Source: a virus (lineage: Duplodnaviria; Caudoviricetes). Taken from it: a DNA stretch of 64,000 nucleotides. The notes below the pieces were generated by a model. That model had not been told where the DNA came from, ran no database searches, and worked only from the letters and a program-made list of their open reading frames with translations. This document shows positions 10,443-62,630 of this stretch, in pieces (position 1 is the first letter of the stretch; the number at the start of each line of letters is the position of its first letter). The DNA is taken from the IMG/VR virus record IMGVR_UViG_3300010167_000010, positions 265,019-329,018 of that record; one strand, given 5' to 3'. The translations under genes were made by a program, and so were the position numbers.

Positions 10443-12878
10443 ATGATTTTAGACAACAAGAATTATAATATTGAAAACAATTTGGAAACTGAATCTAGCG
10501 AATTTGAAATTGCTGCTAATGCAAAAATGTTTGATATATTATCAAATAAAATTTATGAAGATCCAATCAGAGCAGTAATTCGTGAGCTTTCCTGTAATGC
10601 TATCGATGCTAATATTGAAGTAGAAAATATTGAACCATTTAAAGTTTATCTTCCAACCCAAAATTATAAATCTTTAATTATTGAAGATAACGGTATAGGC
10701 ATGACCCATGAAGATGTTATGACAGTTTATAAATCTTATGGAAAATCTACTAAATCTAATTCTAATAAGGTAATTGGTGCATTAGGTTTAGGCGGGAAAA
10801 CACCTCTTGCTTATACTTCACAATTTATTTTAGAAACTGCAAAAGATGGAAAGAAAAATAGTTATATAATTTTTAAAGATGAAGATGGTATTCCAAACGT
10901 TACTTTAACTTCTTCAGAAGATACTGATATTTCTGGAACAAAAATTGAAATGATTGTTCGTAATGAAGATATCGATCTTTTTATTACAGCAGCTATTAAA
11001 ACTTTTGTTTTCTTTGATAAAATGCCGATAATTATGAGAGGAGAAGACGAGTTTTATAGAGTAATATATCAAAAATTTAGTAATACTATGGAAATAGGAA
11101 AGGCTAAATTAGCTTTTGATGAAGCTAGATTTTTATTAAAGAATGATTATATTTCTAATGAAAGCAACGGTGGCGATATTATTATTCGTAAAATATTAAA
11201 TAGCTATAATAGTACACATGGAATTATTATGGGACAAGTTTATTATTCAGTAAATCCTAAAGCAATTTTAAGAGATGGTTATGGAACAGCTGCTGAAGAA
11301 GTATTAAATTTTCCAAATTATAGTAATTATTCTGGCATAAGAAAAGTTATTCATGTAAATCTTGGTGATGTATCTTTTCAACCTTCACGTGAAGTATTAA
11401 ATTATAATAAATCTACAATTGCTTTACTTCAAAATAGATTTTATAATCATTTTGAAAATTATATCGTAAATATGGAAAATTACAAGGATCCAAAAACTTT
11501 CTTGAAGAATTTTTCTAAAATAAATTATGCAAAAGATGTAGTAAAAATCTCTACATGGGATGATACAAATCAAGATGTTTCTTCTATAAGAGATTTATAT
11601 AAAAATGTTATAAATTATTTGTATTCTGAAATTGATCAAAAAGAAGCAAATTATTATATTAAGCAACGCCATAATGGAACTTGGGAAGTACAAGCTATAG
11701 CTCAAGACAGCGCATCAAAAATACAAGACTTAAACACTACAAAAAGTATTTTTTCTGATATATTTGTAGAAAACAAAATAAAAAATATTATTGTATTAGA
11801 TGATGCAAATATTTCTGAAAAACTGGATAATTTTCATAAGAAAGCTTTAGAAAAACAAAGATTTTATTTTACTACTCCAATAAGTTTAAGAAATAAACTT
11901 GTTCTTCTTGATAAAACTATAAATACATTATGTGTAACTGAAAAGACAGCAAAAAAATTAAAAGCTTTTCTAAAAATAGATTTTATAAATTGTTCTAAAT
12001 TAGTAGTTACAAAAGAAGCTAAAATTAAAACAAAATCTGAAAGAGATACTTCTGCAAAATGTTATAATTATACTGAAAGAAGATATGCCGAAATTAATGA
12101 AGTATTAAAAATTACTAAGAAAAATAAAGTTACATATGAATGTTTTGAAGGAGAAGTAAATAAGAAAGGTTGGTGGTATACTCCTTTATTTGATGTAATA
12201 AATAAGAGTACAAAAATAAATAAGCAGGCTTGTATTAAAATAAATTATCATGGAAGCTATAATAATTGCAGTAATAGAGTAGAAGATTTTAATACGATAT
12301 TTAATATGCTTCCCAGTAATAGACCGCATCATTATTTGGTAGATTGGAATTTCTTTAAAAAATATATTATTGGAAATAAAAATTGGGTTCATATAAATGA
12401 TTATGCAACCAATTTAATTAAGGATAATTTTAATACAATTTCAACTAACGCATTAAATATAATTTTATTTGGTGATTCTCCATTTTATAGATCAACTCAA
12501 GCTGAGGCATTATTAAAACATGGAACTGAAAAATATCTTAATTTTGAAAATACAGCTTTTGGAATAGAATGTCAAAGAAAAATTAATGAATCGTTTAATA
12601 AAGAAACTGATATTAGCTTAAATAAAAAGACAGTATCTACATTTCATAATTCTCTTATGGGAATGAAAGAATATTTTAGTTCAGACAGTTTTAATAAACT
12701 ATTAAAAGATTTTGAAGAATTAAAATTAAAATTAGAAGCTGTCAATATAAAAAGAGTAAATTATTGTACAGAAATATATGAAAAATATCCGATGATTATT
12801 TATGCATTAAAATCTGATTTCGATAAAGATCACTTAATAAATTATATTGCAGAAAAAGAGAGCTTAGTATTAAAATGA
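10443..12878 (+). CDS. rIIA: rIIA-like protein with N-terminal GHKL/Hsp90-type ATPase
   Basis: ILSNKIYEDPIRAVIRELSCNAIDA, EDNGIGM, YGKSTK, IGALGLGGKTPLAYT, FQPSREVL are typical of phage rIIA. Confidence 0.85.
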   Translation: MILDNKNYNIENNLETESSEFEIAANAKMFDILSNKIYEDPIRAVIRELSCNAIDANIEVENIEPFKVYLPTQNYKSLIIEDNGIGMTHEDVMTVYKSYGKSTKSNSNKVIGALGLGGKTPLAYTSQFILETAKDGKKNSYIIFKDEDGIPNVTLTSSEDTDISGTKIEMIVRNEDIDLFITAAIKTFVFFDKMPIIMRGEDEFYRVIYQKFSNTMEIGKAKLAFDEARFLLKNDYISNESNGGDIIIRKILNSYNSTHGIIMGQVYYSVNPKAILRDGYGTAAEEVLNFPNYSNYSGIRKVIHVNLGDVSFQPSREVLNYNKSTIALLQNRFYNHFENYIVNMENYKDPKTFLKNFSKINYAKDVVKISTWDDTNQDVSSIRDLYKNVINYLYSEIDQKEANYYIKQRHNGTWEVQAIAQDSASKIQDLNTTKSIFSDIFVENKIKNIIVLDDANISEKLDNFHKKALEKQRFYFTTPISLRNKLVLLDKTINTLCVTEKTAKKLKAFLKIDFINCSKLVVTKEAKIKTKSERDTSAKCYNYTERRYAEINEVLKITKKNKVTYECFEGEVNKKGWWYTPLFDVINKSTKINKQACIKINYHGSYNNCSNRVEDFNTIFNMLPSNRPHHYLVDWNFFKKYIIGNKNWVHINDYATNLIKDNFNTISTNALNIILFGDSPFYRSTQAEALLKHGTEKYLNFENTAFGIECQRKINESFNKETDISLNKKTVSTFHNSLMGMKEYFSSDSFNKLLKDFEELKLKLEAVNIKRVNYCTEIYEKYPMIIYALKSDFDKDHLINYIAEKESLVLK

Positions 12879-13729
12879 TTAAACACATAATTACAGATGA
12901 AGCAATTTTAATTCCCACATCTAAAGGAGTTATTCAATATCAAAAAGATGATGATCTCTATAATGATATTTTAACCCTTGTAATGAAAGAAGATTCTACA
13001 TTAGAAGATATTAAAAAATTAAATTCTTCTTGTAATTATGAAGATGATGATATAGTTTTTATTCAAGAAAAAAATACAGATTCAGTAGAAGTTATTTTTA
13101 ATGGAAGATATCATTTTTTAAATCATACTTTTGTTTCTAGACTTATTCAAATGTTAAAATTAAATGATGGTTTTCAAATGAAACACGCAGCTAATTTTAT
13201 CAAAAGATTATTAAAAAATAATTTTAATTTAACTAATACTTTAGAAAAATTATTAGAAATTGGTTTTTTATATACTCCTTCTGGACAAATTATTTCAGTA
13301 AAAAATTTTGAAAATGAAGGCAAAGGTGTTTTTGCAAAAAAGAGGTCTTTTGCTGAAAAAGATATGATTAAAAAAACTTTCATTTTAATAAACCCTGAAG
13401 ACATTGATGCTCATTTTAATTTTGATCAATATATAGTTTTAGCTAATGTTATGGGCCCTGAAATTTTTGGAGAAAAATATCAAACATTTCTTAATGGTTC
13501 TTGTATAGGTGATGCAGATGAATTATTTAATATATTTAATGTTTTTGAAAAATGCAAAAATAACTATTTATTAAAAGATATAGAAGATTTTACAAGCTTT
13601 AATAAAGAGATAGAAGAAAAATTAGGTGTAGAAATAAATATGAAAAATAGAAAAAGTTCTGAAGTAGTTCTTTCTATATCTCGTTTAATGAAGTTTAAAA
13701 AAATAGTAAATAATATCTTATTTGACTAA
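12875..13729 (+). CDS. Divergent rIIB-like protein
   Basis: Overlaps the rIIA stop; ANFIKRLLKN ... YTPSGQIISVK resembles rIIB NF..RL..N/TPDG.F.AYK. Confidence 0.5.
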   Translation: MIKHIITDEAILIPTSKGVIQYQKDDDLYNDILTLVMKEDSTLEDIKKLNSSCNYEDDDIVFIQEKNTDSVEVIFNGRYHFLNHTFVSRLIQMLKLNDGFQMKHAANFIKRLLKNNFNLTNTLEKLLEIGFLYTPSGQIISVKNFENEGKGVFAKKRSFAEKDMIKKTFILINPEDIDAHFNFDQYIVLANVMGPEIFGEKYQTFLNGSCIGDADELFNIFNVFEKCKNNYLLKDIEDFTSFNKEIEEKLGVEINMKNRKSSEVVLSISRLMKFKKIVNNILFD

Positions 13730-21643: not shown

Positions 21644-21958
21644 ATGAATAATAGACAGAAAAAGAAAGAAGGTGCTAGGGTACATAACAATACTATGGAT
21701 ATCGCAACAAACATTTTTCCCGTCGGAGCTTGTTCTTGTGAGAAAGGTGAGTTATTTATGTATTTGGCTTCTAATCCAGAAAACATTTTTAATATTTACT
21801 GTACAAATTGTATCGTAAGAAGAAACTTAAACATTATTGATCAATACACAGATATAAAGCTTTTTTATAATCCATCTTTAATACTTAAAACTTTAGTAGA
21901 TACTTATGGTGAAGAACAAATAAATAAATTATGGGAAAACAAATGGCAAAAAGAATGA
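21644..21958 (+). CDS. Hypothetical Zn-binding protein
   Basis: CSC ... CTNC. Confidence 0.5.
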   Translation: MNNRQKKKEGARVHNNTMDIATNIFPVGACSCEKGELFMYLASNPENIFNIYCTNCIVRRNLNIIDQYTDIKLFYNPSLILKTLVDTYGEEQINKLWENKWQKE

Positions 21959-22275
21959 TCGGTTATTTAGAATTTGATTTAGATGATCAAAAAAGAAAAT
22001 CTCGGGAAAATACTATTTATTTTCATTTAAGTGATGACGTAGATAAAAAAATACTTAAAAAAGATGTTAGTGCTTTTATTTATAAAGCTGATAACGTTTC
22101 ACACTTTATAGTTAATGAAGATAATTATAAAAAATATAAAAAAGCTTTAGAAGAAAATAAAGAACATTCTCAAGAAATAGAAAAATATAAAAAGGAGATT
22201 AAATTATTAAAGAAAAATATTGAAGATCATAAAGTAGAAATTCAATCTTTAAGTGATAATTTATTATTTAATTAA
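21931..22275 (+). CDS. Hypothetical coiled-coil protein
   Basis: ORF in operon. Confidence 0.5.
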   Translation: MGKQMAKRMIGYLEFDLDDQKRKSRENTIYFHLSDDVDKKILKKDVSAFIYKADNVSHFIVNEDNYKKYKKALEENKEHSQEIEKYKKEIKLLKKNIEDHKVEIQSLSDNLLFN

Positions 22276-43935: not shown

Positions 43936-44178
43936 GTGAATAGATTATACGATTTTCAGTTTAAACAAATAAATGACTCTATGTCTATTCAAGATATGAT
44001 TATACATTTAAATAATTTTCAAAATGCTGTTATTGAAGAAATTAGAGATTTAGAAGTTAAGATGTTAACTATTCCACCACCGCAAACTAATCCTTATATA
44101 AATCATTTAATGCAAGAAATAGAAAATTTAAAAGAAGAATTTAAAAGAGAAAGAAAACGTTGGGGACTTCTTGACTAA
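43936..44178 (+). CDS. Hypothetical coiled-coil protein
   Basis: ORF. Confidence 0.45.
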   Translation: MNRLYDFQFKQINDSMSIQDMIIHLNNFQNAVIEEIRDLEVKMLTIPPPQTNPYINHLMQEIENLKEEFKRERKRWGLLD

Positions 44179-44800: not shown

Positions 44801-45313
44801 ATGAGTAATAATTACTATGGTTTAAATGGTTTTAAAGATTTGTTCCAATTGATGGACGATATCTTTTCTACTGACGGATTTGCAACTATTTATGATAGAC
44901 AACCGCGATTTAACAGACTCATTTCTACCAGGGATTTCCCACCAGCAAATGTGTCAGTTAACAAAGAAACAAAGGAACTTTTAATAGAAGTTGCCTTAGC
45001 AGGATGTAACGAAGAGAACGTAAATCTTTCGTTTGATTCAGATTATCTTAAGTTAATTGTAGATGTACCTACAAAAGCTGAGATAGAACCACTTCATTTT
45101 ATTCAGAGAGGACTAAAGAAGATTCAACATATTGAAACTTCATGGATCGTAGATCATAGATTTTACGATAGAGATAATGTCAAAGTTGAATTTAATAATG
45201 GTCTATTAATGATACGAATTTTTCCTAAAGAGGAAGTTAGACCGAAGAAAATTAATCTTTTCGGTAAATATCAACCACAGGAAAAAGCTACTTTAGAACA
45301 TAAAACAGAGTAG
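44801..45313 (+). CDS. Small heat-shock protein (Hsp20)
   Basis: FPPANV, IEVALAG, IQRGL, FNNGLLMI. Confidence 0.88.
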   Translation: MSNNYYGLNGFKDLFQLMDDIFSTDGFATIYDRQPRFNRLISTRDFPPANVSVNKETKELLIEVALAGCNEENVNLSFDSDYLKLIVDVPTKAEIEPLHFIQRGLKKIQHIETSWIVDHRFYDRDNVKVEFNNGLLMIRIFPKEEVRPKKINLFGKYQPQEKATLEHKTE

Positions 45314-55883: not shown

Positions 55884-56264
55884 ATGACTCAAAAAGAAAA
55901 AAAGAAAATAGCTAAATCATTGGCTTTACCAATGGAAGACATAAGATATACAGAAGTGTTAAGCCAAGAAGAAATAGATCAACTTTTAACAGCAATTAAT
56001 GGTGATGAAGAATCTCCTAAAAATTTTAATAAAACACGAAAAAATACTCCAAAAATAGACTATATTTTTGATCAACATACAAAAATCAACTCTGAATTCT
56101 CAAAAGAAGCTAAAAATAATATTCTTTTATTAGAGGCTAAACTTAAGAAAACATATAAAGTTTTTTTAGAGACAACAAAAGAATTACAAAAAGAGTTAGA
56201 ACAATTAAAAGCCGAAAATGAAAGAATTAGAAAAATTATTAGAACTGCAGAATTATTCGATTAA
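55884..56264 (+). CDS. Protein with FliM-like CheY-binding peptide, coiled coil and ELFD tail
   Basis: TEVLSQEEIDQLLTAI matches the spirochaete FliM N-terminus. Confidence 0.7.
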   Translation: MTQKEKKKIAKSLALPMEDIRYTEVLSQEEIDQLLTAINGDEESPKNFNKTRKNTPKIDYIFDQHTKINSEFSKEAKNNILLLEAKLKKTYKVFLETTKELQKELEQLKAENERIRKIIRTAELFD

Positions 56265-56305
56265 ATAATTGAACAATAAAAATAAAAAGGCTTATATAAT
56301 AATAT

Positions 56306-56821
56306 ATGGAAATAATAACAGGTAATTATACCAAATTAGCTATTATTGAATGTTCTGTTTGTAGAGAAAATCATACATTAGAATTAATTTATGACCATGA
56401 CGATATGACAGTTTGGTTCGAAATGATGCCACAATCTTTTCCTTTTTCATTAAAATTAAAACATTGGTTTCTTTTTAAATTTTATCCAGAATTATTCACT
56501 TTAGGTTATTATAGACAATTTTTTAGTATAGCTTTAACAAATAATCAAATAATCAAAATTATAGAAGTATTAGAAAAAGTTGGTTATAAATCTAGAAGTT
56601 CATATTTATCTCAAAATTATGTTAACTTTATCGAATATTTTGATGTAAATGGTGTTATGATTAGTAAAGATAAAGATTTAGACCATATAGATTTATCTAT
56701 TCATGCTGTTGAAAAAACAGAATTAAATTGGAGACGAACTACTGGCGCGTGGGAAGCTGGTTTATCTAAAGAAGATACAGAAATATTTATTGGTACTCTA
56801 AGAAGTTTAGTTTATGAATAA
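56306..56821 (+). CDS. Hypothetical protein
   Basis: Class I promoter; CSVC..H. Confidence 0.55.
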   Translation: MEIITGNYTKLAIIECSVCRENHTLELIYDHDDMTVWFEMMPQSFPFSLKLKHWFLFKFYPELFTLGYYRQFFSIALTNNQIIKIIEVLEKVGYKSRSSYLSQNYVNFIEYFDVNGVMISKDKDLDHIDLSIHAVEKTELNWRRTTGAWEAGLSKEDTEIFIGTLRSLVYE

Positions 56822-56990
56822 AAAACCAAATCCACCATGGTGTCATTGTGAATATCATGAACATTTATATGAAAATGAGAAACCTAATTATTGGAATAAC
56901 GATTTAAGTGAGCCAATATGCGTTGGACATTTAAATAGAGATAAATGTAATTTTAGAAAAAAATTAAAAGAATGTGAATTATTTGATTAA
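56814..56990 (+). CDS. Cys/His-rich 58-aa protein ending CELFD (not in ORF track)
   Basis: MNKKPNPPWCHCEYH...KECELFD*. Confidence 0.65.
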   Translation: MNKKPNPPWCHCEYHEHLYENEKPNYWNNDLSEPICVGHLNRDKCNFRKKLKECELFD

Positions 56991-57000
56991 GGAGTAAAAA

Positions 57001-57348
57001 ATGACAATCAATAACCCATTTATTAAAGACAAGGATAACATTAAGTGGCTCGAAGATAATTATGAAACATTTTTAGATTATATGGCCAAACATCATTCAT
57101 TAGCAGATTGTTGGCATACCATTTTAGATTTATCAACGTTTGATGATAAATATATTTCTAATATGATAACTAAAGTTACTGCGGCTGATAATAAAAAAAT
57201 TAAAGAAGCTGCTGCTAGAAAAAGAAAACTTGGTGGAAAGAAAACAAATACAAAATCTACAACAATAGAAAAAAAGCAAAGCTTAATTGAAGAAGCAATA
57301 GAAGAAAAAAAAAGGAAATCAAAAGAAGAAGATGAGCTTCTGGACTAA
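57001..57348 (+). CDS. Hypothetical protein ending ELLD
   Basis: AAGGAG SD. Confidence 0.6.
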   Translation: MTINNPFIKDKDNIKWLEDNYETFLDYMAKHHSLADCWHTILDLSTFDDKYISNMITKVTAADNKKIKEAAARKRKLGGKKTNTKSTTIEKKQSLIEEAIEEKKRKSKEEDELLD

Positions 57349-57688
57349 GAAACATTTTAAAGATAAAGATATAGAACAATTTGTTTTAACACCATCTTTA
57401 ATTCGTACAAATTGTCACGATTGTTTTAATTTTATTTCAGGTGGAACAGCATGCGATGTAAAAAGAGAAGAATTTAAAAATAAATATATAAAATATTTTA
57501 AGAAAAATAGTTTAAATGTATTATCTTCTGGAATAAGAGATGAGCATATGATTGGAGAATGTGTATCTAATTTATGTCAAAATTATTCTAAAAAATTATA
57601 TCCAAAAAAATATATTGATCAAATAAACAAAGTACATCCTCCTATAGAAAATCCATTCAAAAAGGGAGAATACGAATTATTTGATTAA
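57332..57688 (+). CDS. Cys-containing protein ending YELFD
   Basis: CHDC...C...C...C. Confidence 0.6.
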   Translation: MSFWTKKHFKDKDIEQFVLTPSLIRTNCHDCFNFISGGTACDVKREEFKNKYIKYFKKNSLNVLSSGIRDEHMIGECVSNLCQNYSKKLYPKKYIDQINKVHPPIENPFKKGEYELFD

Positions 57689-57690
57689 TT

Positions 57691-57903
57691 ATGTGTGTAA
57701 AAGATGCTGATCGTTATTGTGCTAATGCAAATAGTAAATATTGTAAACTCTGTTTTGAAATAAGTATATTTCCTTATTTCTTTAGAGCAACTGGACTTGA
57801 TGATTTTAATTTAAAAGGCTGGCATGAAACTGAATATGAGAAAATTTTAAAAATAAAAGAAGAAAAAATTAATGAAGCTATGCTTTGTGAATTATTTGAT
57901 TAA
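57691..57903 (+). CDS. Cys-containing protein ending CELFD
   Basis: C....C.....CxxC. Confidence 0.6.
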   Translation: MCVKDADRYCANANSKYCKLCFEISIFPYFFRATGLDDFNLKGWHETEYEKILKIKEEKINEAMLCELFD

Positions 57904-57930
57904 ATCTTATATAATATTAAGGAGAAAACT

Positions 57931-58725
57931 ATGGGAAGACCTAAAAAAATAAATAATAATACTGGAAAACCATTTAGATCAGACAGAGAACTAGTAGAAC
58001 AATTTCAAATAAATTTACATTTGAGTTCTACAGCTAGAAAAGATCATACTAAAGAAAAATATCAAAAATTGATGATGGCAGCTGCTACCGAATTATGGGA
58101 AAAATATTTTTTATTAAGAATGAAAATGAGAGCTCAGTTAGCAAAAGTTGTTAGAGATAATAATTTATATTACCCAGAATTATATGAAGAATATGATGGT
58201 GAGGCATGGGATAAATTTATAAATCAAATGGATGGAATTAGATTAGACGATGTTGCTCATTTACCAAATTGGAGTATTTATATTCGTCTTTGGGGTTATT
58301 GGAGATCTATGAATCGTGATTTATTAAAAAAATGGTTTGATTGGAATATAAATACTACACCAATTTTTTCTATTGGTAAAGATCAGGGAAAAGAAAGCTT
58401 AACTAATATAGATGTCGAAGTAGCTAAAAAACCAACTGATATAGAAGATGACTTAAATATTGAAATAAATAAAACTATTTTTTGGGAATCTATAGATAAA
58501 TTAAAGGAAGAATTAACTCCAAAACAAAAAAAATTATTAAATATGAAATCTTCAGGAGCCAAAAATAGAGAAATATTAAGTGAATTAAAAATCAATAATA
58601 AACTTATGAAAGAGCATCTTGATTATATTAAACATCGTTTAGATAAAATAATTACTCAAGTATCGAAACAAAAAGGAGTAGAAATAAACTATTCTGAATT
58701 AGTAGAATCATTAGGTGGGGCATAA
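57931..58725 (+). CDS. Phage sigma-factor-like protein
   Basis: C-terminal region-4-like HTH (LTPKQKKLLNMK..G.KNREIL..L.I); region-2-like centre. Confidence 0.6.
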   Translation: MGRPKKINNNTGKPFRSDRELVEQFQINLHLSSTARKDHTKEKYQKLMMAAATELWEKYFLLRMKMRAQLAKVVRDNNLYYPELYEEYDGEAWDKFINQMDGIRLDDVAHLPNWSIYIRLWGYWRSMNRDLLKKWFDWNINTTPIFSIGKDQGKESLTNIDVEVAKKPTDIEDDLNIEINKTIFWESIDKLKEELTPKQKKLLNMKSSGAKNREILSELKINNKLMKEHLDYIKHRLDKIITQVSKQKGVEINYSELVESLGGA

Positions 58726-58762
58726 TTTAAGTTAATATAATTTTAAGGAGATTATAATATAC

Positions 58763-58969
58763 GTGAAAACTTATGAGTACCAAGACGCAGTAGAGACTTT
58801 ATTTGGAATTTTATCTATACAAGATAAAAATTTACTAGCTAAGGAACTCGCCAAAGTACTTGTTAAATATTCAGACGGAATGAATCGCGGTTGGACAATT
58901 AAAGATATTGATCTAACTCTCTCAAAAGAAAATAATAAATTTTTAATTAAAGTAGGAAACGAAACATGA
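58763..58969 (+). CDS. Hypothetical protein
   Basis: ORF with SD. Confidence 0.45.
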   Translation: MKTYEYQDAVETLFGILSIQDKNLLAKELAKVLVKYSDGMNRGWTIKDIDLTLSKENNKFLIKVGNET

Positions 58970-59469
58970 TGAAATTTTTGCTTTTTATATATGATCCAGA
59001 GGAAATTATATGGGAAGCTCTTAATCCAATGGATGACGATATATATGATTTAATAGAATCTTTAAATGAAAATATTTCTTTAAATATTAAAGAAGTCGTT
59101 ATTCGTGGTTCATTAGGTGAAACATTAGAAATGTATGTAAATATTTCTGATGATCAAGATTATGATAGAATTCTTTTTTATTATGATGGAAACTTTTGGT
59201 TAGATAGTTTAGCTAATAACGCATTCTTAACTTTTGTATCAGAAAATATGCGACCAGAAGTTGGTCATCATACTCATAATTTAATTGACAGATGGATAAA
59301 AACTCCTTATGAAGAAGGAAACGGTAAAAAACTTTTTGCTGAAATTTTACATCTTTGCTATAAAAACTTAGCAGGTGATATACTTTACGAACAAGATAAA
59401 GTTAAAACATTAGAAGAAAAACGTGCTAAAATAGATGAAATAGGCAAGTTTTATTTGAATAATTCTTAA
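58966..59469 (+). CDS. Hypothetical acidic protein
   Basis: ATGA coupling. Confidence 0.5.
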   Translation: MMKFLLFIYDPEEIIWEALNPMDDDIYDLIESLNENISLNIKEVVIRGSLGETLEMYVNISDDQDYDRILFYYDGNFWLDSLANNAFLTFVSENMRPEVGHHTHNLIDRWIKTPYEEGNGKKLFAEILHLCYKNLAGDILYEQDKVKTLEEKRAKIDEIGKFYLNNS

Positions 59470-59488
59470 TATTATCTTATATTATATT

Positions 59489-60802
59489 ATGGATAAGAAA
59501 CTTCAATCTTTATTTAATTTTATTCAAGAAAACGAAAATTGGTATGAGCTTTTAAAAGATGCTCCATATAATTTACGAATACGAGAACATCCCCATATAA
59601 AAAATAGATTTATATTCTCATACGATATGATCAGATCTGATATGAGTTTTGATATTGTAAAAGTATCTAGGGGCCTCGTTCTTGATGTTATAACGAAACA
59701 TTTATTTGATGATTCTAAAGATTACTCAAAGGTTGAACCAGAAAAAGTAAGAAAATGTGAAGTCATAATTAGAGGTTTTGATAAATTTTTTAATCACGGT
59801 GAAACTAATGCTGATAAAATAGATTGGAATGGTCCAATATATGCATTTGAAAAATTAGATGGTTCTCTTATAAAATATACTACAATAAAAGATGTTTATC
59901 CAAAAACCCATCATGGTGTTTGGTATAGAAAATTATGGACAACAAATAATGGGTTTGATGCTAGTGCAAGTTTACCAGGTGACTTAATTTGTGAATATGA
60001 AACATTTCAAGATTTAATAGATGAAGCAATAAAAAATTGGGATCAGAGCATTATTTATGAAATGAAAGAATTGGGAAAAGATTTAGTTTTTATGTTTGAA
60101 CTTGTATCTCCATTTAATAGGGTTGTAGTTCCATACAATATGATCGAACTTTATTGGTTAGGTTGTAGATGCAAAATAACTGGAAAAGAATATTTACCTC
60201 GAGATTTAGTTCATATTGGAACAGATAAAAAGTTTAACTCATCAGTAAGTAAATTATTATATGGGATAAAACAACCAAAAGTTTATCAGATGGAAACAAA
60301 AACTGTTGCAGAAATAATAAATTTAGTTTCTGAAATGGGTGCAGATAAAGAAGGGATAGTTTTAGTAGATCAACATTTTAATAGAATAAAAATTAAAGGT
60401 GAAGCTTATCTTTCAGTTCATAGAATGAAAGATAATAGTGGGCAGTTATCAACAGAACATGTTCTTAAGTGTATTCAAAATGAAACTATCGATGATATAA
60501 TTGGAATGTTTCCAGAATATAATCAAAAAATTCAAGAAGTAGTTAGTCTGTATAAAACTGTAGATTCTAAAATTGATGAAGTATTTTATATGTATGACCA
60601 TCACATTGCTAATATATATCATGCTGATAAAGATGGTCCAACAATGAAAAAAGAATTTGCAATGAAAGTTAAAGATAGTCCATTCTCAAAAATATATTTT
60701 AATATATATAAATGGGGAAAACTTCCAGAAATAAAATCAGACTTTCTTAATAATTTAGATTTAGATTCTTTAAAAAAATATTCGGAGATAAAAGTTGAAT
60801 AA
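59489..60802 (+). CDS. RNA ligase (T4 Rnl1-like)
   Basis: SRGLVL, GFDKFFN, EKLDGSL motif I, MFELVSP.NRVVV.Y, KEGIVL, RIKIK...Y. Confidence 0.88.
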   Translation: MDKKLQSLFNFIQENENWYELLKDAPYNLRIREHPHIKNRFIFSYDMIRSDMSFDIVKVSRGLVLDVITKHLFDDSKDYSKVEPEKVRKCEVIIRGFDKFFNHGETNADKIDWNGPIYAFEKLDGSLIKYTTIKDVYPKTHHGVWYRKLWTTNNGFDASASLPGDLICEYETFQDLIDEAIKNWDQSIIYEMKELGKDLVFMFELVSPFNRVVVPYNMIELYWLGCRCKITGKEYLPRDLVHIGTDKKFNSSVSKLLYGIKQPKVYQMETKTVAEIINLVSEMGADKEGIVLVDQHFNRIKIKGEAYLSVHRMKDNSGQLSTEHVLKCIQNETIDDIIGMFPEYNQKIQEVVSLYKTVDSKIDEVFYMYDHHIANIYHADKDGPTMKKEFAMKVKDSPFSKIYFNIYKWGKLPEIKSDFLNNLDLDSLKKYSEIKVE

Positions 60803-61307
60803 AATTAAAATTGTGTTTCTAGATATTGACGGTGTACTCAATGGTGGATATCAGAAAAAAATGACAAATAATTATTATAATCTTGACAAAGAAAAAATAA
60901 AATTATTAAATAAAATAATTAAAGATTCTTCTGAACCTGGAATTCAAACAAAAATAGTTTTATCTTCAACTTGGAGATTAGATTATACTGAACATGAAAT
61001 TGATTTTCATGGGCATGCAATTGATATGTTTTTTGAAGCCGTTGGAATTATTCCAGTTTGTTTAGGAAGAACAAGATATTTAAGTACTGATAGAGGAAAA
61101 GAAATCTTATCTTGGTTAGTACATTATCATCTTATGGGAAAAGATAAGATAGAAAATATCTGTATATTAGATGATGATGACGATATGTTAGAATTAGAAC
61201 CATGGTTAGTTAACACTAGTCATAGATTAGGTTTAACTGAAGAAAATGTTGTTGAAGCAATAGAAATGTTAAAAAAACCATTTAGATTAAATATAAACTT
61301 GGAGTAA
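60795..61307 (+). CDS. HAD phosphatase of RNA-repair type (HAD_SAK_2-like)
   Basis: FLDIDGVLN, IVLSSTWR, RGKEI..W, ILDDD.DM, GLT. Confidence 0.82.
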   Translation: MNKIKIVFLDIDGVLNGGYQKKMTNNYYNLDKEKIKLLNKIIKDSSEPGIQTKIVLSSTWRLDYTEHEIDFHGHAIDMFFEAVGIIPVCLGRTRYLSTDRGKEILSWLVHYHLMGKDKIENICILDDDDDMLELEPWLVNTSHRLGLTEENVVEAIEMLKKPFRLNINLE

Positions 61308-61310
61308 ATT

Positions 61311-61676
61311 ATGGCTAAATTAATTCAAGAAGAATTTAAATTATTAAGAGATAAACATTGGACTAATGAAAATGCTGAAAAAATAGTTTTAGAAAATACT
61401 ACTGATAATCATTATAAATATTATCATTTATCTCAAGATAAAAATGAAAATTTTATTTTATCTAATAGTCGACCTTTCAGAGCCGCGTGGGGAAGAATTG
61501 GTCATAAAGCACAATCTAAAAATTATATAGAACCAGGATTAACTATGTGGGATCAAATGATGAAAAAATTAGCAAAAGGATATATAGTTAAAACTTATCA
61601 AGTATTTGGAGATCATTGTTCTGCATATCAAGAATTCATGCAATTAGTTGGAGATGATGCGGAGTTATTCGATTGA
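61311..61676 (+). CDS. WGR-domain protein ending AELFD
   Basis: NHYKYY...WGRIG...KKLAKGY. Confidence 0.75.
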   Translation: MAKLIQEEFKLLRDKHWTNENAEKIVLENTTDNHYKYYHLSQDKNENFILSNSRPFRAAWGRIGHKAQSKNYIEPGLTMWDQMMKKLAKGYIVKTYQVFGDHCSAYQEFMQLVGDDAELFD

Positions 61677-61897
61677 TTGATTTTATTGGTCGAAAGTTTA
61701 AATATAAAAAGAAAGAATTTATTGTACATGGGATTCATTGCACAAACTCAGTTTGGGCAACTGGTGCTGTTCAATATGAATGTAGATATTTACCATTAAG
61801 AAAAGATTTACAATATAAAAAATCTTGGGCGTTTGAATGTTTTTCTCTTAGTAAATTAAGTGAAATATTTAAAAAAGATTGGGAGTTATTTGATTGA
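61673..61897 (+). CDS. Small protein ending WELFD
   Basis: GGAG SD plus TTG overlapping the previous stop. Confidence 0.6.
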   Translation: MIDFIGRKFKYKKKEFIVHGIHCTNSVWATGAVQYECRYLPLRKDLQYKKSWAFECFSLSKLSEIFKKDWELFD

Positions 61898-62082
61898 ATG
61901 TTGTTGGTGAAAGATTTATAAGTAGTGCTGGAATAAATTATACTGTTACTGATGAAAAGGGGCCGTCGGCAAGAAGATATCTTTATAAATGTATAAAAGA
62001 TTCTGGTGGTTTTACTTGGTTTAGTAGAAAAGAAATTTTAAATTATATTATAGAACAAACAAAAGCAGAATTATTTGATTGA
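61894..62082 (+). CDS. Small protein ending AELFD
   Basis: GGAG SD plus TTG overlapping the previous stop. Confidence 0.6.
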   Translation: MNVVGERFISSAGINYTVTDEKGPSARRYLYKCIKDSGGFTWFSRKEILNYIIEQTKAELFD

Positions 62083-62105: not shown

Positions 62106-62630
62106 ATGACAATTAAAGATATTTTAACTGAGGCAGTAGAGAAAAAAATAACTTATGCAGAAGCAAAAGAAAAATTAAAAAAATTAAGGCTTCCGCGGGA
62201 TGATTTTGAGCAATATGATATTTTAATTTACAAATTATTAGGAAAGGAAGAAAAAATAATTCATAATAAAATTCAATATCTTCCTAATATTCCTAATACT
62301 GTTTATAGTGTTATATTACAAGATGCTATTCAAAAAGTTAGAGAAGAATGGTATACTCCTGAAATATGTCAACACTTATTTGATACATATAGAATAAGCT
62401 CAAGTTTAATGAATTATTTTATAAATGAAGCAATTCATATAGTTAGAATGAACTCTATGAGCCAGGAAGAATTTGTAGAAATTGGTAAAATGTATCATAA
62501 TGCTATAAAATTTTTAGAAGAAAATATTAAAGAAGGGAAAAATATAAAATTAGAGGTACCAACTCCTAATATAAATGCTGAACAAGCAGAGAAAATTATA
62601 GTTAAACCAGTTGATTGTGACGACGAATAG
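62106..62630 (+). CDS. Hypothetical late protein
   Basis: ACTAAATAAT directly before ATG. Confidence 0.55.
   Translation: MTIKDILTEAVEKKITYAEAKEKLKKLRLPRDDFEQYDILIYKLLGKEEKIIHNKIQYLPNIPNTVYSVILQDAIQKVREEWYTPEICQHLFDTYRISSSLMNYFINEAIHIVRMNSMSQEEFVEIGKMYHNAIKFLEENIKEGKNIKLEVPTPNINAEQAEKIIVKPVDCDDE

Follow-up and report, generated by a model that had tools for sequence, protein, structure and literature searches.

Why should unrelated small proteins of one phage all close on the same few residues? The question is raised by a 64,000-nucleotide stretch of viral DNA (hereafter, the window), which is the final part (positions 265,019 to 329,018) of the complete 329,018-bp virus record IMGVR_UViG_3300010167_000010 (Duplodnaviria; Caudoviricetes), a genome with 28.5% guanine plus cytosine (GC) and 123-bp terminal repeats. 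A preliminary description, made from the letters of the window alone, had listed seven small open reading frames (ORFs) ending in ELFD and one ending in ELLD between positions 55,884 and 62,082, with a weaker echo (NILFD) on the ORF 12875-13729; on re-reading the window, the coordinates and endings of all nine hold. Across the whole genome, about 30 otherwise unrelated small proteins share a terminal peptide, either ...ELFD or ...N-[I/L]-LFD. This tail probably serves as a short linear motif at the C-terminus by which the proteins dock on one common reader. Coordinates are those of the window, unless given as genome positions.

The terminal peptide and the level of selection

ELFD closes 14 of the 418 ORFs called genome-wide, whereas 0.016 such endings would be predicted from how often the tetrapeptide occurs internally. 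Calculated likewise from internal peptide frequencies, xLFD endings number 20 against 0.15 expected, and L-[F/L]-[D/N/E] endings 31 (about 7% of the ORFs) against 1.04. The ORFs were crudely called, which is tolerable for such counts because C-termini are independent of the start chosen. This genome-wide count of C-terminal tetramers, which the preliminary description had proposed as a check, thus yields a larger set than the one first noted. An unrelated jumbo phage, G001 (340 kb, 26% GC, 9/418 proteins in common), served as a control; it lacks such tails, with no xLFD ending among its 534 ORFs.

The tails come in two flavours. The first, x-E-L-F-D, often follows a hydrophobic residue, a Gly, and 2-3 further residues, and its full consensus is a hydrophobic residue, Gly, 2-3 residues, and [E/D]-L-F-[D/E]. 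The second, [E/K]-x-N-[I/L]-L-[F/L]-D, closes coiled-coil-like segments. All 31 tails close on Asp, Asn, or Glu.

Carriers of the tail form a distinct class of genes. All 31 lie on the plus strand, while none of the 109 minus-strand ORFs bears a tail (p 7e-5). Among plus-strand ORFs, the tail is found on 29 of the 165 with at most 160 residues (18%), against 2 of the 144 larger ones (1.4%; p 6e-7), and no ORF of at least 300 residues ends with it. Promoter-like motifs precede 29 carriers and belong to an early- or middle-type class in 27 cases and to a late-type class in two, these motif classes being unverified; to judge from these upstream sequences, the carriers are probably made early or in mid-infection.

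A nucleotide-level signal lying across gene ends (a promoter -35 box, a recombination site, a terminator, or a coupling signal) might simply happen to translate as ELFD. Indeed, TTGAT within TTTGATTAA is -35-like, the tail-coding DNA at genome position 2134 is followed, 15 nt further on, by a CTTATATA box, and two tails overlap TTG starts (TTGA). However, all 17 plus-strand copies of the degenerate DNA motif GAR-Leu-TTY-GAY are in frame within genes, 14 of them being followed by a stop codon, and not one copy is out of frame or intergenic on that strand of the whole genome. Of the 24 plus-strand copies of the shorter pattern Leu-TTY-GAY-stop, 20 are at gene ends; none of its five minus-strand copies is. 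Synonymous codons are used at all four tail positions (GAA/GAG, TTA/TTG/CTT/CTC/CTG, TTT/TTC, and GAT/GAC) and are followed by any of the three stop codons, so that variants such as TTC GAT, CTC TTT GAC, CTT CTG GAC, and GAA TGA disrupt any fixed DNA word. Codon usage is no narrower than genome-wide, the rare codons GAG, GAC, and TTC being at least as frequent in tails as elsewhere. No conservation is seen 3' of the tail stop codons, the distance from the tail to the next start runs from -26 nt up to several thousand nt, and in related phages 3-21 nt (up to seven codons) separate the motif from the stop.

Because the motif occurs in frame only, its codons vary, the downstream sequence is not conserved, and a gap can open between motif and stop in relatives, it is the peptide, not the DNA, that is under selection. 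The preliminary description had argued the same from synonymous codon variation, and its argument is borne out by the codon variety, the rare-codon usage, and the in-frame-only motif; conservation at the nucleotide level only, which it had named as a finding that would count against it, is contradicted by the 17 in-frame copies. On these sequence comparisons, the nucleotide-level explanation is already largely refuted, and its probability is judged to be close to nil. The narrower reading of TTTGAT as a promoter -35 element was rejected on the in-frame-only copies, the codon variants, and the variable spacing.

Proteins that carry the tail

All the carriers described here are on the plus strand. 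Their densest cluster straddles the genome ends, at 320.9-327.1 kb and 0.5-4.1 kb, around a ClpS gene (genome 217-525) that lies just past the end of the window, across the terminal repeat. This ClpS is canonical (PF02617, E 1.2e-24), and by eye it keeps the usual residues of the N-degron pocket. Its stop is abutted by the start of the first tail-bearing ORF of the genome (genome 525-728).

Within the window, the cluster opens with a coiled-coil protein of 126 residues (55884-56264, ending in ...RTAELFD), which contains a peptide like the N-terminus of FliM and matches no Pfam or PHROG family at threshold, and whose residues 21-95 are 37% identical to the phage's own FliM (BLASTP, E 1.4e-4). 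Downstream lie a Cys/His-rich ORF of 58 residues (56814-56990, ...KECELFD), the start of which overlaps the upstream gene by 8 nt, a Lys/Glu-rich protein of 115 residues (57001-57348) with the Leu variant ...EEDELLD (codons GAG CTT CTG GAC), and two Cys-rich proteins of 118 residues (57332-57688, ...GEYELFD) and 70 residues (57691-57903, ...MLCELFD). Further on, a WGR-domain protein of 121 residues (61311-61676, ...VGDDAELFD) is the third gene of a conserved block, after a T4 Rnl1-type RNA ligase (59489-60802; PHROG 562, E 2e-43) and a HAD_SAK_2 phosphatase (60795-61307; PF18143, E 1.4e-20). Its Pfam WGR match is just under the cut-off (E 3.6e-4), and the identity of the domain is given by its orthologues, which carry PF05406. 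Two ORFs of 74 residues (61673-61897, ...KKDWELFD) and 62 residues (61894-62082, ...QTKAELFD) complete the series; like the Cys/His-rich and the two Cys-rich proteins, they match no Pfam or PHROG family. At 61673-61676 and again at 61894-61897, the TGA stop of a tail gene overlaps the TTG start of the next one, and this TTGA arrangement accounts for the TGA stops of the WGR gene and of 61673-61897. Such an arrangement, twice in succession, suggests translational coupling with TTG starts. A 264-residue protein encoded within the same cluster (57931-58725) has, by eye, a sigma-70-family look, with region 2-like and region 4-like segments. No Pfam family matches this protein, which is conserved in two related lineages (L154 and L156) and ends in ...VESLGGA, i.e., without a tail.

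Elsewhere in the window, the tail of the second flavour closes a protein of 284 residues (12875-13729, ...VNNILFD) in the RIIB position, directly after a RIIA homologue (PHROG 612, E 5e-85). A coiled-coil protein of 114 residues (21931-22275), with a weak match to PHROG 473, ends in the Asn variant ...SDNLLFN. The weakest member of the set is an 80-residue protein (43936-44178, ...RWGLLD), possibly a chance match, as about one ending of the loose type L[FL][DNE] would arise by chance alone. Outside the window, a NUDIX hydrolase (genome 230262-230732) ends in ELFN and a Hsp20-like protein (genome 154239-154982; PHROG Hsp20, E 1.9e-5) in NILLD. The latter is one of two IbpA/Hsp20-like proteins of the phage, being 28% identical over 109 residues to the other (44801-45313). 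A reading of NILLD as the small-heat-shock IxI motif was dropped, since an IxI-type motif (...KINIE...) is already present upstream in the same protein and the alternation of hydrophobic residues is missing from ELFD. The gene directly after that of the NUDIX carrier encodes a 354-residue SLT-domain protein (genome 230742-231806), which ends in ...EILILFDVE, so that one of the few larger proteins has the motif close to its C-terminus.

The view that the bodies of the carriers are unrelated, first formed by inspection, has been confirmed: BLASTP of carrier against carrier gives no links between bodies, and none via the tail, and nearly all carriers lack a family in Pfam and PHROGs, except for the WGR, NUDIX, and Hsp20-like proteins. 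The tail was modelled on one carrier, the WGR protein. In its AlphaFold2 model, built from the orthologue alignment, the body has a mean predicted local distance difference test (pLDDT) score of 82, and residues 116-121, past the last helix, score below 50. The tail is predicted to be a free, exposed appendage, because this low score follows the last helix of a confident fold. A Foldseek comparison of the model with the PDB gives only weak matches to PARP WGR domains (E at least 0.07).

The tail in related phages

The virus is read as an uncultivated jumbo phage of a spirochaete. It encodes RIIA, a DnaB-type helicase, GroEL, and the RNA ligase (PHROG matches), together with many flagellar and chemotaxis parts, including FliM-FliN and FliN. 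Its flagellin is 63-68% identical to Spirochaetota flagellins, among them those of termite-gut Treponema metagenome-assembled genomes (MAGs). No close relative was found among GenBank phages by blastn, and none in IMG/VR by protein-pattern searches with three queries; the exact DNA word GAATTATTTGATTAA gave only scattered single matches in IMG/VR, one of them in G001. Protein searches did recover a family of metagenomic relatives, of which partial sequences were compared; MAGs from the samples of some of these contigs are named termite-gut bins.

The WGR protein is the sole carrier conserved in all relatives recovered, and its orthologues (48-58% identity) keep L-F-D in seven of seven lineages. 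The motif is terminal in four of them (AELFD, CELFD, TDLFD, and NLLFD) and is followed by DEDELD, DDDEILI, or DDGAMF in the other three, while the two residues ahead of it differ (AE, CE, TD, NL, WD, or VE). As ELFD, DLFD, and NLLFD all occur on this one orthologue, the three are interchangeable there; as three lineages extend past LFD, a free carboxylate right after Asp is not needed. Orthologues of the ORF at genome 525-728 keep YELF[N/D] in three of three cases, and the L156 orthologue of 57001-57348 (44% identity) ends in the variant ...GDDDLLDD. No counterpart of 61673-61897 is present at the same position in L154. The order RNA ligase, HAD phosphatase, WGR recurs in L156, L157, L158, and L160, with ClpS directly upstream of the block in L156 and L160. 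After the WGR gene, every relative also has a 174-residue all-helical protein (62106-62630 here), in which an internal ...QHLFD... is largely conserved and the C-terminus is acidic; it has no informative Atlas match.

Other tail-bearing genes come and go at defined places. The Metallophos-primase interval holds two tail ORFs in this phage (AELFE and TELFD), four in L158 (TELFE, TELFD, CELYE, and YELFD), two in L157 (SELFDDDEV and SELFDDEELI), and none in L154, L156, or L160; these ORFs are mostly not alignable with one another. The gene content of the interval shows, at the level of sequence comparison, that tail-bearing small genes turn over at fixed hot spots. In L158, the WGR protein and two other small proteins, two of the three being encoded by adjacent genes, are alike in their last 16 residues (E 4e-4 to 4e-3), and this 16-residue module suggests that tails may spread by the copying of gene ends. 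In more distant relatives, the Metallophos-primase pair has other neighbours, namely an IS605 OrfB/TnpB-type gene (L161:12838-14094) and a ClpP/NfeD-like protease gene (L163:2810-3625).

Candidate readers, rival explanations, and known systems

The preferred explanation, a docking motif, would work as follows. A flexible exposed tail on about 30 unrelated small proteins would tether all of them to one reader, in which basic residues would flank a hydrophobic pocket that takes up L-F; some related lineages add a short acidic run after the motif. A single reader is thus inferred, and the carriers may possibly constitute an undescribed modular effector system. The preliminary description had already proposed a shared C-terminal docking tag for one hub. 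The tag part of that proposal is supported by the peptide-level selection, the unrelated carriers, and the conserved exposed tail; the hub itself is putative. Several points weigh against the docking explanation. Family searches in the phage's own genome turned up no evident tail reader: the AAA matches include a MoxR-like ATPase, a clamp-loader subunit, and a PIF1 helicase, and no AAA match stands out as a candidate. The two flavours could, in principle, serve two different readers, and the timing of the carriers leans on promoter-like motifs that are themselves unverified. Retention of the tail in homologues, which had been put forward as a test, holds for the WGR protein, for 525-728, and, as the DLLDD variant, for 57001-57348, but not for 12875-13729, whose sole homologue (P0002, 45% identity) ends in ...RLER.

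One candidate reader is the phage's own beta-type sliding clamp, acting as a tool-belt by analogy with T4. A divergent beta-clamp-like protein of 392 residues (genome 150014-151192) has an Atlas structure with template modelling (TM) scores of 0.71/0.75 to bacterial DnaN and 78 homologues in the representative library; it has no Pfam or PDB sequence match, and no DnaN-Pfam match is found genome-wide. A clamp-loader-type subunit is also encoded (genome 241961-243115; PF13177, E 1.5e-16). Against the clamp, the halves of the split DNA polymerase end without a tail (...DDIFLEHV and ...GGFYSDEK), the tail is confined to ORFs below 300 residues, the Gln of the bacterial clamp-binding motif is missing from the corresponding position of every tail, and nothing evident links the FliM-peptide, Hsp20-like, NUDIX, and RIIB-position carriers to DNA. 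The clamp may be the reader, although this is rather unlikely. A proteolytic adaptor or a protease is held to be about as doubtful, a host hub likewise, and some other phage-encoded protein is a slightly less remote candidate. The three ORFs directly after the clamp-like gene (genome 151194-152416) share an N-terminal peptide resembling ...KIRNGFVSNSS, and make up a second terminal-peptide family in this phage.

The same tails could instead serve disposal, as a C-terminal degron through which early accessory proteins are removed on schedule by a host AAA+ protease (ClpAP, ClpXP, or Lon), maybe via a phage adaptor, so that the class is cleared or stabilised together. Such a class-wide fate fits mixed-function small proteins of the early and middle classes better than a DNA tool-belt does, and the phage ClpS, a kind of protein discussed as an adaptor to host ClpAP (PMC7824862), is encoded beside the tail-rich cluster, and its gene is linked in L156 and L160 to the block of ligase, HAD, and WGR genes. 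Genes for GroEL and Hsp20-like proteins are present in the phage as well. Known bacterial C-degrons, however, end in non-polar residues (ssrA, ...LAA) rather than in Asp or an acidic run, and the tails, with Asp, Asn, or Glu last in 31 of 31 cases, are unlike the LAA-type end that ClpX or ClpA reads. ClpS itself recognises N-terminal, not C-terminal, residues, and family searches found no ClpP or AAA_2 unfoldase in the phage genome. As no Lon-type match emerged among the families searched either, the earlier suggestion of adaptors delivering CheY-P to a protease finds no support. Finally, the invariance of the tail on a conserved, operon-embedded WGR carrier fits a functional partner better than disposal. 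A degron is, on balance, improbable, yet it is the main rival. Much less probable is a shuffled C-terminal module without a common reader, in which the end of the WGR protein (helix, Gly linker, LFD) would have spread by duplication or recombination and been kept for helix capping, solubility, or self-association. This is suggested by the three L158 proteins that are alike over their last 16 residues, two from adjacent genes, and by the N-[I/L]-L-F-D flavour closing coiled-coil-like segments. For most carriers of this phage, however, the similarity is limited to 4-5 residues and gives no BLASTP links between tails, and the modelled WGR tail is disordered, not packed. Since four residues stay invariant on 14-20 unrelated bodies while synonymous changes are free, ongoing selection on these exact side chains is indicated.

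Mimicry of a host tail is very improbable. The carriers would compete for the readers of the chemoreceptor pentapeptide NWETF (CheR/CheB), of the SSB tip DDDIPF, or of the ribosomal P-stalk (...GFGLFD). DWELFD and EYELFD are akin to xWExF, the EENILFD pattern is akin to DDDIPF, LFD-COOH behind an acidic linker is how the stalk ends in eukaryotes and archaea, and flagellar and chemotaxis parts are numerous in the phage. Nevertheless, only 5 of the 31 tails have W (2) or Y (3) at position -5, and Phe is never last, being always followed by D, N, or E, whereas NWETF has Trp in position 2 and Phe at its end; no tail contains Pro, in contrast with the terminal Pro-Phe of the SSB tip after its acidic run. 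CheR and the partners of SSB require the alpha-carboxylate of Phe, and mimicry is incompatible with such readers because relatives extend past LFD, by up to seven residues in three related lineages. The CheR-pentapeptide idea of the preliminary description is therefore not supported. The P-stalk pattern is present in sequence, but its setting is archaeal or eukaryotic, whereas the flagellin (with its Spirochaetota identity), RIIA, ClpS, and DnaB-type genes of the phage point to a bacterial setting. A 226-residue minus-strand protein of this phage (genome 136690-137370) ends in ...GDKEIPF, a tip resembling that of bacterial SSB; a search of the whole genome with the Pfam model of SSB gave no match.

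If the tail is indeed a docking motif, what would it offer? No function is known for most of the small proteins that phages make early, and a common tail would mean that one machine deals with about 30 of them. A peptide of 6-9 residues would be a single handle with which to fish out that machine and then sort dozens of unknown proteins. Should the reader be the phage clamp, the T4 tool-belt idea would expand from three clients to dozens; should it be a protease or its adaptor, a new type of bacterial C-degron would result. A broader proposal, which can be put forward only tentatively, is that the reader may be a clamp or a proteostasis adaptor, and that lineage-specific C-terminal address tags may organise the accessory proteomes of phages. 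One reader would handle about 7% of the proteins (18% of the small plus-strand ORFs), small genes would join by gaining a tail at recombination hot spots, and other dialects would exist across many unrelated phages.

No description of this tail was found in the literature on ELFD/LFD tails, on short linear motifs of phage early proteins, or on WGR in RNA repair; parallels exist among known systems. The acidic C-terminal tails of T7 gp2.5 and gp4 dock on the gp5 polymerase, and the bacterial SSB protein ends in the tip DDDIPF. As in these proteins, an acidic linker is followed by an aromatic residue near the C-terminus that could act as a docking handle. In contrast, the T7 and SSB systems have one or two bearers, many readers, and an essential terminal Phe carboxylate, while here the bearers are many and Phe is penultimate or internal. 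A second parallel is the bacterial beta-clamp-binding motif, QL[S/D]LF, often found at the extreme C-terminus of clamp partners. The tails share with it an acidic residue (acidic or Ser in the motif) before L-F. They differ by having no Gln-Leu start, variable residues at positions -6/-5 (N, A, S, Y, D, W, and others), and an obligatory Asp after Phe, on carriers that are not known clients of the clamp (the bacterial motif is reviewed in PMC11139829).

The closest likeness is with T4, whose gp43, gp55, and gp33 carry a common, interchangeable hydrophobic-acidic C-terminal motif, attached by a flexible linker, through which they bind the gp45 clamp (PMC2988020; T4 sliding-clamp-binding motifs are also treated in PMC7892883). 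Read from NC_000866, gp43 ends in ...ASLDFLFG and gp55 in ...SLDFLYEAND. Here too, a short hydrophobic-acidic motif (...[ED]LFD, in some cases followed by an acidic extension) stands at or near the C-terminus of unrelated proteins; it is predicted, for the WGR carrier, to lie on a flexible linker outside the fold, and the phage has its own clamp-like protein and clamp-loader subunit. The differences are equally clear. The T4 bearers are three DNA or transcription proteins, including the polymerase, whereas the carriers here number about 30, are nearly all small and without a known family, and comprise neither the polymerase halves nor the sigma-like protein. In addition, the clamp here is of the beta (DnaN) type rather than the gp45/PCNA type, and binding of the tail to it is hypothetical. 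Overall, the shared C-terminal docking tail is, as a principle, already known from T4 and T7; in this phage it would extend to about 30 mostly small proteins.

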